A stretch of DNA of 64,000 nt, taken from NCBI GenBank assembly GCA_019057865.1, contig JAHLWP010000001.1, positions 96,001 to 160,000 of the forward strand, written 5' to 3'. This document shows, piece by piece, positions 1 through 46,669 of this stretch. Each line of letters starts with the position of its first letter. Position 1 is the stretch's first letter. The notes beneath the pieces were generated by a model. That model searched no databases. It saw only the letters and a list, made by a program, of their open reading frames with translations, and was not told where the DNA came from. Made by a program: the position numbers and the translations under genes. This DNA is from Promethearchaeota archaeon (lineage in GTDB: Archaea > Asgardarchaeota > Lokiarchaeia > Sigyniarchaeales > SOKP01).

Positions 1-556
1 CGAGACGATGATGATAAACATTGGAGATATTGAAATGGGAAAATTCTTGAATATGCCTACTCATGCATATATGGGTTTAAGTGATTCAAAAGTTCCTGAT
101 AGCCAAGCAGGTTTTGAAGCAGGAATGGGAGCCCTTTTAGCAGCACTTGCTGGAAATAATATGGTTTCTGGTCCTGGGATGTTAGATTTTGAATCTACGC
201 AAAGTATAGAAAAATTAATAATTGACAATGAAATTGTAGGAATGGTAAAACGTTTTATCCAAGGTATAGAGGATTATGGTTCTCCTTTTGCAGCCGAAAT
301 TATAAAAGATTATGAAGAAACACAAGAATTATTATCTCATCCAACGACTTTAAAATATTTTAGAAAAGAACTCTTCTTACCAAGTCCTATTATAGATAGA
401 ACAACTCGTGATACGTGGAAAGCATTAGGATCTAAATCTGCAAGAAAAAGAGCAAGAGAAGAAGCAGCTAAATTAGTAAAGAAAACACCAATAAAACCTA
501 TTGATGATTCTCTTATTAAAGATTTAGATAAAATAGTAAAGAATGCATTAAAATAA
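1..556 (+). CDS. Trimethylamine/quaternary-amine methyltransferase (MttB family), 3' part; gene begins before the window
   Basis: C-terminal MttB-like motifs GLSDSKVPDSQAGFE, GPGMLDFESTQSIEKLIIDNEI and HPTTLKYFRKELFLP. Confidence 0.85.
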   Translation, partial: ETMMINIGDIEMGKFLNMPTHAYMGLSDSKVPDSQAGFEAGMGALLAALAGNNMVSGPGMLDFESTQSIEKLIIDNEIVGMVKRFIQGIEDYGSPFAAEIIKDYEETQELLSHPTTLKYFRKELFLPSPIIDRTTRDTWKALGSKSARKRAREEAAKLVKKTPIKPIDDSLIKDLDKIVKNALK

Positions 557-29992: not shown

Positions 29993-30095
29993 GGCCGGGT
30001 TCGTCTAGTGGTAAGGATTGGGGACTGTGAATCCCTAGAGGTTTAAGATCTATTCTATTACCGGGGAAAGACGGGTTCAATTCCCGTACCCGGCC
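29993..30095 (+). tRNA. tRNA-His(GTG) with encoded G-1 and a 30-nt intron in the variable region; CCA not encoded
   Basis: Acceptor GCCGGGT/ACCCGGC, D-arm GTCT-AGTGGTAA-GGAT, anticodon arm GGGGA-CTGTGAA-TCCCT (GTG 30027-30029), T-arm ACGGG-TTCAATT-CCCGT, G-1 (29993) and C73. Confidence 0.92.
30039..30068 (+). other. tRNA-His intron at position about 45/46 (relaxed BHB)
   Basis: Central helix CCCU/GGGG, bulges AG^A and AA^A, inner helix GGU/ACC; excision leaves a 4-nt variable region. Confidence 0.82.
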
Positions 30096-38640: not shown

Positions 38641-39789
38641 CTATTTCCTCCCGTTACCCCAAAAATTATATTTACCACGGCTTAAGATATGTTTCGGATC
38701 AATTGTATCTTTAATCTTTTTCATTAGTTCATAATAACCTTTCTGATAGCCTTGAATATTTACCATATGTCTACTCAGAATATCGCCAAACATATAGAAC
38801 ATTGCTCCATGCTTAATTAGTCTTTCTAAAAGGGATTTCCAAAGCTTAAGATTAATTTCTTTAATATTTTCATGCTTTTCACCATTATAATAGCTTGGAA
38901 AACTAGTAAATCCACAAGTTAACTCAATATTGCTACCTTCAGTTAATATAATTGGACCTGTGCCTGTAATTGGTCGCATTCCAGTTATCTCTAAAATTTT
39001 TTGCATGTCTTCAGAGTGTTCAATATCCCATTGATCTAAATCTTTCATGATCTTAGGATATGCATTAATAGGTACATGACATTCTGCATCTACAGGATCA
39101 AATCCAGGTATTAATCCCCATAAGTTGTGCGCTATTAACCAGTGTCCCTGTTCTTCATAATGCCATTTAGCTATATTTCCATCCGAGATTTCTGGGCCAA
39201 ATTCTTCTGCTTTTTTACCTAATATTATTTTATCTAGTTGTGTAACTTTTGCTTTTAGTTCTGTTTCCGAGTTTGCTTCAACTGTATAAAAAATTACAAC
39301 CCTTTTTCTTTTTAAATGTTCCCACATAGGAAACATTCCATATTGAATCCCAATAGATACAATTAAATCCATGAAATACATAGTATCATAAACATCAATT
39401 CCATTTTGCCTAATTTCAGTCATAATTTGAGCTGCTGTTTCAGCAGGTTTACAAGGCATTAAGAATGTTTTGTACTCTGCAAATTCTGGTTTAGGAAATA
39501 CTTGTAGAGAAACTTTTGTTTTTACGCCAAAGATTCCATTATCCCCACAAAAAAAACCTGCTAAATCAGGACCATTTCCAAATCTATTGAATGGTAATTT
39601 TGAATATTTATTAGCCTGAGAACCAGTTTCAATTATTTCTCCTGTTGGTAAAACTACTTCTAAAGAAACTAATTGGTTAGTACAAGGTCCATACTTGGCG
39701 CATCCACCACCTCCTACAGAATGATGAGAGAGTCCTCCTCCTACTGATGAAGTTAATCCAGATCCTGGACCCATGCATCCTATATAGAG
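38641..39789 (-). pseudogene. FAD-binding (GlcD/Dld-like) oxidoreductase copy 3, 5'-truncated
   Basis: Homology to copies 1 and 2 starts abruptly at LYIGCMGPGSG (39789); the roughly 125 N-terminal residues containing PRGGG are absent. Confidence 0.8.
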
Positions 39790-40034
39790 TAATGTAATAA
39801 TGGTTTTATATCTTCAATAATATGATGTGGTAGTACCTCTGGTTTGTGTTCTGCGATCACACTAATAATATAAGAGCTGGGAATGATGAATTCTTGATCA
39901 CTAAGTAATATCATTAAATTATCTAATAGCCTAGATGCATTTAGAAAACGATCTTTAGAAGAAAGTAACTTATTACATTTTGAAACAAGCGGCAACAAGG
40001 AAGGGTAATTTTTGAAATGATCAGTATTTAACAT
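39780..40034 (-). pseudogene. N-terminal fragment of a helical-repeat (HEAT/ARM-like) protein, cut at the junction with FAD copy 3
   Basis: Amphipathic helices SYIISVIAEHKPEVL; its stop lies inside sequence homologous to FAD copy 3. Confidence 0.45.
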
Positions 40035-40407: not shown

Positions 40408-42093
40408 ATGAATAAAAGAAATGTTGTAGTATGGATTCTTGTAGCGGCATTGGTTATATCTGGAATCAGTAATATTATTCTAGTTATAAACTATCCTCAA
40501 CCTTCCACTTCACGGGATCCTGACACACTTGTAGTGGGAATTGCATATAATCCATACACACTAGAAATTGTAAATACAAGATTCGGTCGGGATCACGTAT
40601 CAAATAATATACTTGGACAAATAGTGGAAACTCTATTTACAAATGATTTAACGGATCCGAAATTACCACGAATTAATCTATTAGCTGAATCTCATTGTTG
40701 GGAAAACACCACCACGCTTCACATCAAGCTACGTGAGGGTATTTTGTTCCAAGATGGGACTCCTTTCAATGCTACTGCGGTAAAATGGAATTTCGACCGG
40801 CTTCAATATCTTATCAATGCCACAGGAACAAATGCTGGAGAAGTTGCAGATACTCGTTCTTTATGGATGCGCCCCAATGAGAAAACTCCTATAATAAACA
40901 ACACGGCTATTACAGGTAACTATAATATCACACTCACCCTAAATGGCGCCTATGGTCCTTTTCTAAGTATGTTAACGAATATTAACACTGGAATGATTTC
41001 CCCAACCACACATATGAATGATACTTCCAGATTTATCAGTTTAAATACAGAAAATCTGGTGGGGACGGGTCCGTTTATCTATGGACATTACATTCCAAAT
41101 GTGGAAGTCGTCTTATCGAGATGGGAAGGGTATTGGAGTCATATAGCATACTTTAACAGACTACAATTCGCTATTTTTAGACCTGTTTCGGTGCTAAGAG
41201 ATGCAATGCTTCATCATCAAATCGACTACCTTATGCATTTTGAAGATGAATTCATCCCTGCTTTTGAAGCGGATGAGAGTATAATTCTAAAGAGATTTAC
41301 TGATGATACAGGCTTGCCCGGCTTAAATTACGGTTTATTGGAGTTTAATACCATTCATCTCAACGAAACATGGAGAAAAGCATTGAGCTATGCGATTAAT
41401 TATAGTTATATATTTAATGAAATGAAAGAGGGATGGGATCGAGGCACATCTCCAATTTCTCCATCGTTTGGAGCTTTATACAACACTTCCGTGAAAACTC
41501 CAGAATACAATATTACAAAAGCACGGGAAGTCATGGTATCAATGGGGTTTGGTGATATGGGATGGTCTGATGAACAATGGATCACTTCTATATTTGCTGA
41601 ACTTGGATACTATCCTTATTATTATAGCTATTTTGAGCATGAACTCAAAGAAAAGTTATTAGAATGGTATAGATTAATAGGCGTTTCTTTCTGTGGTTGG
41701 TGGGCTGTTTATCCTTTTGAAGCGTTTGAAGCATTAGATTTTTACTGGATGGGAGACGCACCAGATTTTTTTGACCCCTTTTCTATGTTATATCGGTTGA
41801 ATAACTATGAATATCTAATTTTCAGTTTTGATTGTGTGACTTATTATGTTCCTCCATTAAATGATACTTGGATTAATATCAAATTGGAACTCGTCTTAGA
41901 AACCATTGATGATGAAGCAAGAGATGAGATATATAAGGATGTTCAATGGTATTTTGCTGAGAAGCTATATCCTCATGCATTTGCATGGCATCCAAAAATA
42001 TTCTTTGTGCATTCTGCCGACCTTAGAGGTGTTCCATATAATGCAATGGAAAAATTTCAAGGAAATGTTCTATGGAGAGCAGATAATCTATAG
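40408..42093 (+). CDS. Peptide/nickel ABC transporter solute-binding protein (family 5), orphan
   Basis: N-terminal TM anchor; LREGILFQDGTPFNATAVKWNFDR, VGTGPF, WRKALSYAIN; many NxS/T sequons. Confidence 0.9.
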   Translation: MNKRNVVVWILVAALVISGISNIILVINYPQPSTSRDPDTLVVGIAYNPYTLEIVNTRFGRDHVSNNILGQIVETLFTNDLTDPKLPRINLLAESHCWENTTTLHIKLREGILFQDGTPFNATAVKWNFDRLQYLINATGTNAGEVADTRSLWMRPNEKTPIINNTAITGNYNITLTLNGAYGPFLSMLTNINTGMISPTTHMNDTSRFISLNTENLVGTGPFIYGHYIPNVEVVLSRWEGYWSHIAYFNRLQFAIFRPVSVLRDAMLHHQIDYLMHFEDEFIPAFEADESIILKRFTDDTGLPGLNYGLLEFNTIHLNETWRKALSYAINYSYIFNEMKEGWDRGTSPISPSFGALYNTSVKTPEYNITKAREVMVSMGFGDMGWSDEQWITSIFAELGYYPYYYSYFEHELKEKLLEWYRLIGVSFCGWWAVYPFEAFEALDFYWMGDAPDFFDPFSMLYRLNNYEYLIFSFDCVTYYVPPLNDTWINIKLELVLETIDDEARDEIYKDVQWYFAEKLYPHAFAWHPKIFFVHSADLRGVPYNAMEKFQGNVLWRADNL

Positions 42094-42256
42094 AAATCTT
42101 TTTCAAATGTTATAAGAACTCTCCTTTTAGTATAGTTTGGTACTTTGGATCTCGTTTATGAAAAGATATTTTCGTTATATAACTTAACTTTTTTTTTATT
42201 CATTTTTCCATATTGATCGATGAGTCATAATAATATATATCATAATATGATTATCA

Positions 42257-42349
42257 TCATAAATCTTTCTGCAGTTATGGATAATTTCCAAAACCTATAC
42301 AGGAGAATATGGCTTGCCATTCTTTTTTTAAATGTTTCAATTCAGTCAT
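42257..42349 (-). pseudogene. Remnant of Fe-S oxidoreductase copy 2: exon 1 plus BHB intron, exon 2 lost
   Basis: MTELKHLKKEWQAIFSC is 13/17 identical to copy 1; starts 1 nt after the FAD copy 2 stop, as in unit 1. Confidence 0.85.
42267..42296 (-). other. 30-nt BHB intron in protein-coding remnant (intron B)
   Basis: UC|CUGU|AU^A|GGUUUUGGA-AAUUA-UCCAUAACU|GCAG|AA^A|GA. Confidence 0.78.
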
Positions 42350-42350
42350 T

Positions 42351-43868
42351 TTATTTTTCACCCCAAAAATTAAATTTTCCTCTACTTAATATCATTTTTG
42401 GATCTAAAGTTTTTTTATTTGATTTCATTACATTATAATACTCTTCTGAATATGCTCCGATATCAACCATAACACGAGACATATAATCTCCCATCATGTA
42501 CCATTGTACACCATGCTCAGTAACTCTTTTCAACAGAGATTTCCATAGTTTTATATTTATTTCATCGATAATTTTATGGGCTTCTCCATTATAGAAACTC
42601 CAGAAACTAGTAAACCCACAAGTAATTTCTACATTAGTTCCATCTATTAATAGAATTGGACCACTTCCTGCAATACATCTTATTTTAGTAATTTCAAAGA
42701 TTTTTTGCATATCTTCTTGATGCTCAAAATCCCATTGATCAATATCATCTAAGATACTAGGATATTGTATTATAGGACTAAAACATTCGGCTGTGAGAGG
42801 TTGTATAGTAGGAAAGATTCCCCATAAATTATGATAGAATTGCCAATGTCCTTGTTCAGTATAATGCCATTTAGCGATATTCCCATCTGATATTTCAGGT
42901 CCTAGTTCTTCACTTTTATTTTCCACCATAATCTTATCTAATTGCCTTATCTTTTCGTCTAGCTCTTTTTCAGAATTTGCTTCTATGGTATAAAAGATCA
43001 TACCTCTCTTTTTTTTTAGATCATCCCATAATGGCAAAAATTTTTCTTGCGTCCCAAATCTCACAAGCAGATCCATAATATACATTAAATCATAAACATC
43101 AATTCCTTTTTGTCTAATCTCACTCATCATCTGAGCAGAAATTTCAAGTGAGTTTCGAGGCATTAAAAATGTTTTATAACCAGCATATTCAGGTTTAGGA
43201 AAAACTTGCAGTGAAACTTTTGTTTTTACTCCAAAAATTCCATTATCACCACAAAAAAGTGCAGCTAAATCAGGACCATTTCCAAATCTATTAAATGGGA
43301 ATTTTGAATGTATATTTGCTTGAGATCCTGTTTCAATGATTTCACCAGTTGGCAAAACAACTTCCAATGAAACTAGTTGATTAGTACAGGCACCATACTT
43401 AGCACATCCACCACCACCTACTGAATGATGAGAAGGTCCTCCTCCTATTGATGATGTCAATCCAGATCCTGGACCCATACACCCTGTGTAAAGCCCAAAA
43501 TGACATAAATATTCATTTAGTTTACTTCAAGAGATACCAGCTTCCACAGTAACTATTAAATTATCTATATCCAAATTCAATACTTTATCCATACTTTTTA
43601 GATCTAAGACAATTCCAGTATCTCCAATAGGTTTACTCCCTCCAAACTCACAGTCTCCACCACCTCGAGGGATAACTGGTACATTCTTTTCATTGGCAAT
43701 TTTGAGAATATATGAAATTTCTTCTGTAGTTTTAGGACGTATAACAATATCAGGAACACCTTGAAGATTGGAAGTAACATTCCGGGAATAAGCGTGTCGA
43801 ACATATAAGTCATTAGATATCCTATTTTTGGACACTATTCTTTCTAATTTCTGGTACAATCCTGACAT
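42351..43868 (-). pseudogene. FAD-binding (GlcD/Dld-like) oxidoreductase copy 2 with a single in-frame TGA at a conserved Trp (43527-43529)
   Basis: ORFs 43527-43868 and 42351-43478 share a frame: EAGIS*SKLNEYL versus EAGISWGKLNEYL in copy 1; 1518 nt. Confidence 0.85.
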
Positions 43869-43887: not shown

Positions 43888-45150
43888 TTATAGTTTAGAT
43901 GCAATTAGGTCAATTATATCAATAACTTTAATTTTTTCTTTGATTTCTGGCTCCATTTCTTCATAAGCATTGCTTAGATTTCCGATGCAAAAAGGACAGC
44001 TAGTAGTTAAGATTTGTGCGCCTGATTCAACAGCTTCTTTTATCCTTTCTTGTGAGATTTTAAGAGCTAATTCAGAGAATTGACTCTTCATACCTCCCCC
44101 CGCTCCACAACACCAAGCATTATTTTTATTTCTTTTCATTTCGACTAATTCAATTCCAGGTATTTTAGAAAGAACTTCTCGAGGGATTTCATAAAGATTC
44201 ATATGACGTCCTAAATGGCAGGGATCATGATAAGTGACTTTAACTCTTTCCATCTCTTCTTTAAAAGATATTTTATTGTTATTGATTAATTCCACCAATA
44301 TTTCTGTTATGTGTTTCACTTCAAATGGTAATTCATAGCCTAGTAATTCAGGATAATCTTTTTTCCAAGTTCTATAACATCCTGCGCAAGCTGTAAATAA
44401 GGTTTTAGCACTTTTATTTTTGAATTCATCAATATTGTGCTTAATCATTTCAGTTATAGATTTTTCATCACCAATCCTTATAGCAATAGAACCACAGCAC
44501 CACTCATCTTTAGACATTGCAATTTCTATTCCTGCTGCTTTCAATATTTTCATCATGCTTTTTAGCGTTTCTACTTGTCTTAAGGGCATGGTACACCCTC
44601 CAAAAAACATTAAGTCTCCCTTTTCCTTAATCTCAGGAAATTCCTTTATCCAATCAAATTTTTTATCTTTATCTTCTCCATAAGGATTCTTCATATTATC
44701 ATCGTTCATATACTCGATTAGATCACCATGTCCATCCAGAGGAGCAAAACCAGCCTCAACTAGATCCTTTCTTAATGCTTCCCATACTTTTACATGATCG
44801 ATCCAATTGCTTGTGGGAAGAACAATATATGGATTCTGAGACATATGGCAAACCTCAGTACAATTCCCACATTCGCTGCATTGGTAAACCCATTCAGCAA
44901 GTTCTCTACTCAAAGGAATTTGACCTTCTAAAATGCTCTTGAGAACATTCATTCTTCCCCTTGCAAAATATATTTCAAAACCTTCCTCTTCCTTAGCTTC
45001 CAATACAGGACATGTTAAATATCTACCAACAACAGGTCGAATGGCATACCCACAATCTCCGCAGCCCAAATATAGATTCCAGGAGCTCTAGAACCTTATA
45101 CACGACATGACCGCTTTCCATTCTTTCTTTAAATGTTTCAATTCACTCAT
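43888..45150 (-). CDS. HdrD/GlcF-like Fe-S oxidoreductase (4Fe-4S dicluster plus two CCG domains), split by a 30-nt BHB intron; 410 aa after splicing
   Basis: Exon 1 45150-45098, exon 2 45067-43888; spliced SCMGCGDC...CP, CSECGNCTEVC, WCCGS, TACAGC, YHDPCHLGR, CCGAGGG, TSCPFC. Confidence 0.85.
45068..45097 (-). other. 30-nt BHB mRNA intron (intron A) containing an in-frame UAG
   Basis: GUC|GUGU|AU^A|AGGUUCUAG-AGCUC-CUGGAAUCU|AUAU|UU^G|GGC; ligation gives UGU AUG GGC UGC. Confidence 0.82.
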
Positions 45151-45151
45151 T

Positions 45152-46669
45152 TTATTTTTCACCCCAAAAATTAAATTTACCTCTACTTAAAATCATATTT
45201 GGGTCAACAGTTTTTTTGATTGATTTCATTAAATTATAAAATTCTTCTGAATAAGCTCCAATATCTACCATGAAGCGAGACAAAAAATCACCCATCATAT
45301 ACCATTGTACTCCATGTTTTATTACCCTTTCTAAGAGAGATTTCCATAATTTTATATTTATTTCTTTGATGATTTCATGGATTTCTTCATTATAATATCT
45401 CCAAAAGCTGACAAAACCAGTTGTTATCTCAACATTATTACCGTCTACTAGAGGAACGGGACCACTACCTGATATAGGACGAGTTTTCGTAATATCAAAT
45501 ATTTTTCGCATATCTGCTTCATTTTCTATATCCCATTGATCAACATCTTGCAAAATTTTGGGGAATGCACTAATTGGGCAAAAACATTCAGCTGATAAAG
45601 CTTGCATTGAAGGAAACATTCCCCATAGATTATGATACAATTGCCAATGTCCTTTTTCAACATAATGTCATTTAGCAATATTTCCATCAGATATTTCTGG
45701 ACCTAAATTTTCAGATTTTTTATTCAAAATCATATCATCTAATTTCTTAACATTTTCATTTAATTCAACTTCAGAATTTGCTTCTATAGTATAGAAAAAC
45801 ATTCCTCGCCTACGTTTTAAATGTTCCCATAACGGAAAGAATCCTTGGTCTGATCCTATAGCAACCACAACATCTGGAATAAACATCGCATCATAAACAT
45901 CAATTCCCTTTTGTCTAATTTCATTCATAATCTGTGCTGCTGTTACAGCAGATTTACGAGGCATTAAAAAAGTTTTATATTCTGCAAATTCCGGTTTAGG
46001 AAATACTTGTAAAGAAATTTTTGTTTTTACACCAAAGATTCCATTATCCCCACAAAAAAGACCTGCTAAATCAGGCCCATTTCCAAATCTATTGAATGGT
46101 AATTTCGAATATTTATTGGCCTGAGAACCGGTTTCTATTATTTCTCCTGTTGGTAAAACTACTTCCAGAGAAATTAATTGGTTAGTGCAAGCACCATATT
46201 TAGCACATCCTCCTCCACCAACAGAATGATGAGAAATACCCCCACCTACTGATGCACTCATCCCAGAACCAGGTCCCATACACCCTGTATAGAGTCCAAA
46301 ACGGCACAAATATTCATTTAGTTTTCCCCAAGAAATTCCTGCTTCAACTGTTGTTATGAGATTATCTTCATCTAAATTAATAATGTTATTCATTCTTTTC
46401 ATATCTAAAACTATACCCCCATCTCCAATAGGTTTGCTTCCACCAAATTCGCAAATACCAGCTCCACGAGGGATAACAGCTATATTCTCTTCATTGGCAA
46501 TTTTAAGGATTTCTGAGATTTCTTTTGCATCTATTGGTCTTATAATAATATCAGGTACTCCTTGTAAAACAAGATCAACATTTCTGGAATAAGCATGGCG
46601 CACATAAATATCATTTGAGAGAAACTCTTTTGATACTACTTTTTCTAACTTTTTGTAGACTTCTGACAT
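45152..46669 (-). pseudogene. FAD-binding (GlcD/Dld-like) oxidoreductase copy 1 with a single in-frame TGA at a conserved Trp (45668-45670)
   Basis: GNIAK*HYVEKGHW versus GNIAKWHY in copies 2 and 3; 1518 nt, the same length as copy 2. Confidence 0.85.

Follow-up and report, generated by a model that had tools for sequence, protein, structure and literature searches.

Is the small element that interrupts a truncated gene copy in the 64,000-nt stretch of DNA analysed here (the window) a BHB intron, is it whole, and how did it come to lie in a gene fragment? The window belongs to a Promethearchaeota (Loki-type Asgard) MAG, called G000 below, with a 4.26-Mb assembly that is 99.7% complete. The original prediction described a 30-nt BHB intron in a truncated paralogue (relic B), at the same codon position as in an intact copy of the gene (gene A). 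We compared both copies with the genome of the closest relative (G012), with other genomes of the genus and with metagenome contigs (L followed by three digits). The FAD oxidases encoded upstream and downstream of the Fe-S gene are called oxidase-u and oxidase-d, and units 1 and 2 of composite inserts are called I1 and I2. The features of the locus are as follows.

38641..39790, minus strand: native oxidase-d, 5'-truncated (nt 375 to the end; nt 1-374 are missing), with 91% identity to the G012 orthologue
40408-42093, plus strand: family-5 solute-binding-protein gene, convergent with relic B
42094..42245, minus strand: AT-rich spacer past the putative breakpoint, abutting the 3' end of the convergent solute-binding-protein gene
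42246..42266, minus strand: putative first 21 nt of I2 (A, 5' stem strand GAUUUAUGA, loop and 5/9 nt of the 3' stem strand)
42267..42296, minus strand: intron unit 1 (I1), 30 nt (A, 9-bp stem, 5-nt loop, GCAG, AA), with a complete BHB core
42297..42349, minus strand: exon 1 of the relic, from a GlcF-like Fe-S/CCG gene (17 codons from the ATG on (MTELKHLKKEWQAIFSC), then the AU of a Met codon)
42351..43868, minus strand: chimeric FAD-linked oxidase gene ('copy 2'), a mosaic of the 5' part of oxidase-d and sequence of other origin
43888..45150, minus strand: gene A, intact, Fer4_8 and two CCG domains; exon 1 at 45150-45098, exon 2 at 45067-43888 (393-codon ORF)
45097-45068, minus strand: BHB intron of gene A, 30 nt, with an in-frame TAG inside
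45152..46669, minus strand: upstream FAD oxidase gene ('copy 1'), 91.5% identical to the G012 orthologue

The FAD-oxidase ORF at 43868-42351 ends with ...GKFNFWGEK and a stop codon, and the ATG of relic B (42349) follows two bases on. After codon 17 + 2 nt, a 30-nt element with the predicted layout 1+9+5+9+4+2 was found at 42296-42267 (-). Its stem, GGUUUUGGA/UCCAUAACU, has 8/9 bp and one U-U, and its CUGU/GCAG central helix with AUA and AAA bulges completes a BHB core. The exon takes part in this structure: the last 6 nt of relic exon 1 are CUGU, the 5' strand of the central helix, and two bulge bases. The predicted cuts fall after 42297 and after 42267. The same BHB fold, as originally drawn, came out as the minimum-free-energy structure of B. 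The folding energy is unremarkable on its own (z = -1.8 against shuffles), and values across the structures folded, -1.2 to -2.8, are only mildly better than those of shuffles; thermodynamic stability was dropped as stand-alone evidence because such z-scores are too weak. Layouts at least as good as that of B (helix 4/4, stem at least 8/9, loop 4-7) occur at 4.4e-4 of all positions when every position of the 4.26-Mb genome is scored. That B shares its codon position with gene A is thus not attributable to chance. The outer helix of B is only 2-3 bp long, as against longer exon1:exon2 helices in the intact homologues, because exon 2 has been lost. Directly after the 30-nt element, the sequence reads A GAU UUA UGA, and splicing of B at I1 would give ...SCIDL and a stop. 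B itself does not restore a functional frame; if the relic is transcribed, I1 might still be excised, with just a 21-codon frame as the product.

Our recounts gave the same identities between the two copies as the original prediction, namely 13/17 for the exon 1 proteins and 10/30 positions for the introns. All four central pairs are kept between A and B, as had been stated, but the claim that all of them are kept through changed bases goes too far: one pair changed on both sides (G-U to C-G), two changed on one side, and U-A is unchanged. The regions of A and B form a 1.58-kb duplication (76.7% identity) whose end falls shortly after the start of the inserts, by a few bases, and the homology of B to gene A is already gone inside the intron.

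For a broader comparison, metagenomes were scanned for exon 1 followed by ATA. This returned 34 contigs, of which 32 carried an insert and then exon 2. With the interrupted genes from genomes of the genus added, the set comprises 40 interrupted loci with 32 distinct inserts, all with intact exon 2. In this set, the homologues of the I1 of B are the first units of inserts of 59-63 nt, in L042, L043, L078, L090, L104 and L111. Relic exon 1 matches exon 1 of L078 at 49/53 nt and that of gene A at 44/53 nt. The I1 sequences of B and L078 differ at four positions, all of them on the 3' strand of the stem and all pair-preserving.

The similarity goes further than I1. Positions 42266-42246 match the start of I2 at 21/21 positions in L078 and at 18/21 in L090, after which the similarity to both contigs ends, following ...AAUCAUA. 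The original prediction held that homology stops at the 3' splice site and that the breakpoint coincides with the intron end. Because B is homologous to L078 and L090 through the first 21 nt of I2, we place the breakpoint instead inside I2, at 42246/42245, within its 3' stem strand and evidently ~10 nt short of the real 3' splice site. Missing from B are thus those ~10 nt of I2, including the 3' splice site, and all of exon 2. The spacer at 42094..42245, that is, the DNA to the right of the breakpoint, showed no similarity to exon 2 or to the corresponding loci of the five relatives searched. Judging from these comparisons, relic B is a non-functional fragment of an Fe-S (Fer4_8 + CCG) gene that comprises I1 and 21 nt of I2.

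B could instead be a 30-nt BHB intron that is complete in itself and lies in a truncated paralogue broken exactly at the 3' splice site, since the 30-nt unit alone is geometrically a complete BHB core and single 29-31-nt introns of similar sequence occupy the same site in other genomes (e.g. L093). We consider this very improbable. The 21 nt that follow in B are the start of I2, L078 and L090 continue for ~10 nt more before exon 2 begins, and the close relatives of the I1 of B (L042, L043, L078 and L090) are all double inserts. B is thus not the whole 30-nt intron that had been proposed; it corresponds to I1 and the first 21 nt of I2 of a 61-nt double intron.

At the junction itself (42241-42262, minus strand), the UAUGAU of the I2 5' stem strand is repeated past the breakpoint, which creates the palindrome AUCAUA-U-UAUGAU. 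Hairpin-mediated template switching may have taken place at the break.

Two close relatives of B, L078 and L090, have a composite insert of 61 nt in which one BHB unit is nested in another, and the same organization is seen in eight distinct inserts of 57-63 nt. Each can be split into I1 and I2, both with the layout 1+stem+loop+stem+4+2. I2 starts exactly at the expected end of I1, and the AA|A bond is common to both. The 5' strand of the I2 central helix is the 3' strand of the I1 central helix, GC(A/G)G. It faces CYGN just 5' of the final cut, and this GC(A/G)G/CYGN helix has 4/4 pairs in six of the eight inserts and 3/4 in two. Folded for minimum free energy, L078 directly forms hairpin 1, the CAG/CUG helix, an AAA bulge and hairpin 2. 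By our own reading, a direct pairing of the exon 1 YUGU with the last CUGN in double inserts was poorer than GCAG/CUGN and was discarded for that reason.

These pairings suggest an order of processing. The insert of intact relatives splits a Met codon between its second and third bases, in the Cys-Met-Gly-Cys with which the CxxCxxC cluster motif begins, and I2 sits exactly in the 3' cut site of I1. Since the I1 and I2 motifs are mutually exclusive, I2 should go first. GCAG would initially pair with the CUGN at the end of I2; removal of I2 would regenerate a canonical I1, with GCAG now paired to the exon 1 YUGU. At each step, the archaeal splicing endonuclease (EndA) is expected to cleave both 3-nt bulges behind their second base, and ligation by RtcB would then restore the reading frame. 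Two PF01974 genes (EndA; contigs C71 and C69) and one PF01139 gene (RtcB; C75) are present in G000.

Removal of the 30 nt of gene A creates UGU AU|G GGC UGC, which encodes the C-M-G-C of the CxxCxxC motif, and yields exactly the sequence of the intron-less orthologues. In 27 such orthologues the gene is contiguous, with TGY ATG GGN TGY coding within ...SC-M-(G/N)-CGDCG.... The Fer4_8 match of gene A starts at profile position 8, which fits the first cluster Cys being encoded in exon 1. Seven further genomes of the genus have an insert of 29-31 nt or 59-60 nt at the same bond. All 40 loci are interrupted at the identical phosphodiester bond, right after TGY AT, with an intact exon 2 behind, which is full length wherever the extent of the contig permits. 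The 32 distinct inserts measure 29, 30, 31, 34, 57, 59, 60, 61 or 63 nt. Twenty of them have a frame-shifting length, the other 12 contain an in-frame stop, and none (0/32) can be read through. If both bulges are cut behind their second base and the ends are joined, gene A and the 40 homologous loci alike read UGY AU|G GGN UGY, in agreement with the intron-less orthologues.

The base pairs are conserved in the face of this sequence diversity. All four central-helix pairs form in 24 of the 25 distinct single inserts scored, B being counted among the 25, and the 4-bp helix is paired in 99% of cells of the insert alignment. The pair that involves the Ser wobble base (columns 11-48) occurs as five types, UA, GU, UG, CG and GC. 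Both sides change in all four outer pairs of the intron stem, and the exon-exon outer pair covaries as well, the third base of Met/Phe with the Gly wobble base. The covariation score was 0.506, whereas shuffles gave 0.23 (0/500) and slid controls no more than 0.13. Thus, the compensatory pairing that the original prediction had asked to see in homologous introns was found, and its view that the fold rather than the sequence is under selection is supported by 32 distinct inserts at 40 loci, well beyond the strength that a comparison of two copies can have.

The inner half of the intron stem (helix 4) behaves differently. It is 66% paired in the MAFFT alignment and has no common register across length classes; the 31- and 34-nt classes cannot be fitted to a single consensus register along the entire inner stem. 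Our argument therefore relies on the central helix and on the outer portion of the stem. The 34-nt introns at the same site (L079, L083, L089, L091 and L099) carry an extra 4-nt internal bulge in the 3' stem strand (AGGUCCUAG ... CUAGAUUAGACCU). This bulge indicates that length variation is tolerated in the inner stem, with the central helix fixed.

Geometry, frame restoration and covariation together strongly support the identification of the inserts as BHB introns of the pre-mRNA, from which we infer their cutting and joining. They might conversely be no RNA introns at all, and represent DNA junk or MITE-like hairpins, linkers or translational bypass elements in host genes that are pseudogenes or recoded. 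Their turnover is fast and DNA-mediated in appearance, and two neighbouring oxidase genes in G000 carry nonsense codons, as such an explanation would have it. Nevertheless, it is very unlikely: every insert disrupts the frame and yet exon 2 has stayed full length at the 40 loci, target-site duplications and terminal inverted repeats are absent, and the insertion point is identical to the nucleotide. Moreover, the inserts covary with exon bases in pairs that are relevant in RNA only, and cuts by the BHB rule restore the exact codon of the orthologues. Blastn-short searches of G000 with the introns and exon 1 returned only self-hits and the A/B pair, and thus no high-copy repeat.

A tRNA gene of the window also has an intron of this kind. 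The tRNA-His(GUG) gene at 29994-30095 (+), missed by ARAGORN and found by Rfam, contains a 30-nt intron in its variable-arm region, with the layout 1+9+5+9+4+2 and a CCCU/GGGG helix. Since it matches the I1 of B at 19/30 positions, the tRNA and mRNA introns may belong to one family.

The surroundings of relic B bear on its origin. In relatives, the gene order is oxidase-u, Fe-S gene, oxidase-d, and no exon-1-like sequence follows oxidase-d in their loci. Sliding-window identities rule out that copy 2 arose from copy 1 by plain tandem duplication. The first ~780 nt of copy 2 (43868 to ~43089) are orthologous to oxidase-d, with 83-98% identity to G012; its last ~300 nt are 79-89% like oxidase-u, which normally precedes the Fe-S gene; and its middle part has 65-72% identity to everything sampled. 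The native 3' part of oxidase-d (39790-38641) is parted from relic B by the solute-binding-protein gene, which is absent from this place in relatives. This piece is the 3' part, now displaced, of the gene that contributed its 5' part to copy 2. The two oxidase-d pieces of G000 overlap by ~400 nt and are only ~83% alike there, which indicates that more than one allele was involved.

With copy 2 chimeric and the native oxidase-d displaced, relic B, the supposed paralogue, is best understood as part of a recombination scar, or mosaic, and not as a decayed tandem paralogue or a simple truncated copy. We propose that recombination moved the relic fragment into oxidase-d along with the 3' half of a gene of the oxidase-u type. 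The right-hand junction, inside I2 at 42246/42245, would have been illegitimate, with loss of the 3' splice site and exon 2. Taken together, it is highly probable that relic B is a dead GlcF-like relic that holds I1 and 21 nt of I2 from a nested 61-nt BHB intron and marks a recombination scar. That its exon 1 and half-intron belong to a split gene and are trans-spliced to a detached exon 2, in the way that split tRNAs are joined via BHB-like structures in some archaea, has next to no probability even with start codon, exon 1 and the 5' BHB half intact, given that the only exon-2-like sequence in the 99.7%-complete assembly is that of gene A, to which an assembly search also showed the exon-2 start motif to be unique, that the next best paralogue, with 40% identity, comes with an N-terminus of its own, that the I2 3' stem strand is cut short and a search of the assembly for a complementary partner found none, and that the surroundings are evidently a recombination scar.

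Both full-length oxidase genes of G000 have an in-frame TGA, at 45670-45668 (-) in copy 1 and at 43529-43527 (-) in copy 2, where all relatives have TGG. Recoding of TGA as Trp was ruled out, since the relatives have TGG at both sites and TGA terminates other genes of the window. The two codons are, by this comparison, G000-specific nonsense changes or consensus errors. With a TGA in both genes, the whole locus in G000 may be decaying or mis-assembled.

Placing intron presence on the Fe-S protein tree required a minimum of 7 changes with 36 rows and of 15 with 58 rows, and intron types are intermixed in tight clades. Gene A (30-nt intron), G012 (no intron) and L078 (61-nt intron of the B type) illustrate this turnover. 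Their exon 2 sequences are 95-98% identical overall and 96-99% identical past nt 200, as against only 84-90% in the first 100 nt, and in the last 23 nt of exon 1 only 15-17 positions match. Given the low identity next to the site and the 96-99% beyond it, the divergent flanks look like co-conversion with the intron state.

Free-standing genes for HNH_3 endonucleases of ~500 aa were found directly upstream of the Fe-S gene at 12 of the 31 intron-bearing loci with enough flank. The 27 intron-less loci have no such gene, and oxidase-u there runs right up to the Fe-S start codon. The following HNH_3 genes lie 93-370 nt upstream of the Fe-S gene.

L045:2-1501: HNH_3 gene
L046:3-1484: HNH_3 gene
L079, L082, L091, L099, L100, L101 and L111: further HNH_3 genes

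The association between HNH genes and introns has a Fisher p of 2e-4, a value that overstates it, since the loci compared are related to one another and were sampled differently. Together with the patch resembling co-conversion, it fits collaborative homing and does not prove it. Under this scheme, the HNH endonuclease would cut intron-less alleles at the CxxCxxC-coding site, and repair would copy the intron, the nuclease and flanking exon sequence of the donor. Relic B, with its junction 51 nt from the insertion site, would then be the scar of an aberrant repair. If true, homing would account for relic B and the divergent patch, and also for the occurrence of three intron states in genes that share 96-98% identity. 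A whole-genome search of G000 found no HNH homologue. We regard mobility of the BHB micro-introns at the DNA level through HNH-driven collaborative homing, with relic B as an aberrant-repair scar, as a tentative idea, somewhat more likely wrong than right.

Splicing of mRNA by the tRNA endonuclease and ligase concerns essentially one archaeal gene in the searchable literature, cbf5 (PMC2738675). The cbf5 pre-mRNA of Crenarchaeota contains a BHB intron whose splicing was demonstrated experimentally (Watanabe 2002; Yokobori 2009, PMC2738675) and which shows one ancient gain and some losses, few in number (PMC2738675). A 2026 preprint on Asgard introns deals with tRNA genes only. Like that of cbf5, the introns described here are small BHB introns of a protein gene, presumed substrates of the tRNA splicing endonuclease, and present or absent among related lineages. 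Unlike it, they are found in another phylum (Promethearchaeota/Asgard) and another gene (an Fe-S/CCG subunit), and they interrupt a codon of the CxxCxxC motif after the first 53 nt of the gene. They also come in many sequence types, in single and double forms, at one site, and their state differs between genes that are 96-98% identical; splicing, experimental in cbf5, is deduced here from comparison.

Nested or adjacent multiple introns reportedly occur in crenarchaeal (Thermoproteales) pre-tRNAs, as Sugahara in 2007/2008 and Tocchini-Valentini in 2011 are said to have described. The double inserts resemble them in that the BHBs share nucleotides and are mutually exclusive, that processing is ordered and that the units measure ~30 nt. 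They differ in that the host is an mRNA, that I2 lies exactly in the 3' cut site of I1, and that one cleavage bond and the GCAG strand are shared. Collaborative homing of a phage intron with a free-standing HNH endonuclease is said to have been reported by Bonocora and Shub in 2009 and by Zeng in 2009. The HNH gene just upstream of the Fe-S gene (12/31 vs 0/27) and the divergent patch at the site recall that system, whereas the element here is no group I ribozyme but a BHB micro-intron spliced by proteins, and G000 is without an HNH homologue.

By analogy, the mechanism is that of the cbf5 pre-mRNA intron and of the nested pre-tRNA introns. New are the host lineage and gene, the variety of alleles at one site, the nesting of introns within an mRNA, the speed of turnover and the association with a nuclease. 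At this locus, the fold is kept by compensatory change, presence flips between near-identical genes, and a homing-type nuclease often accompanies the intron, which would make the system a tractable test of the spread of protein-spliced introns, with a bearing on intron origins in the archaeal ancestors of eukaryotes. Relic B offers an independent, selection-free snapshot of one intron allele, and suggests that DNA fragments ending near the intron get moved between loci. On the practical side, gene callers will miss or truncate genes interrupted in this way.

The window holds one more RNA element. Rfam PYLIS_3, the pyrrolysine insertion element of mttB, matches positions 77-176 (+) with 49.6 bits, in the first ORF of the window, which suggests that this ORF is a Pyl-containing methyltransferase gene.
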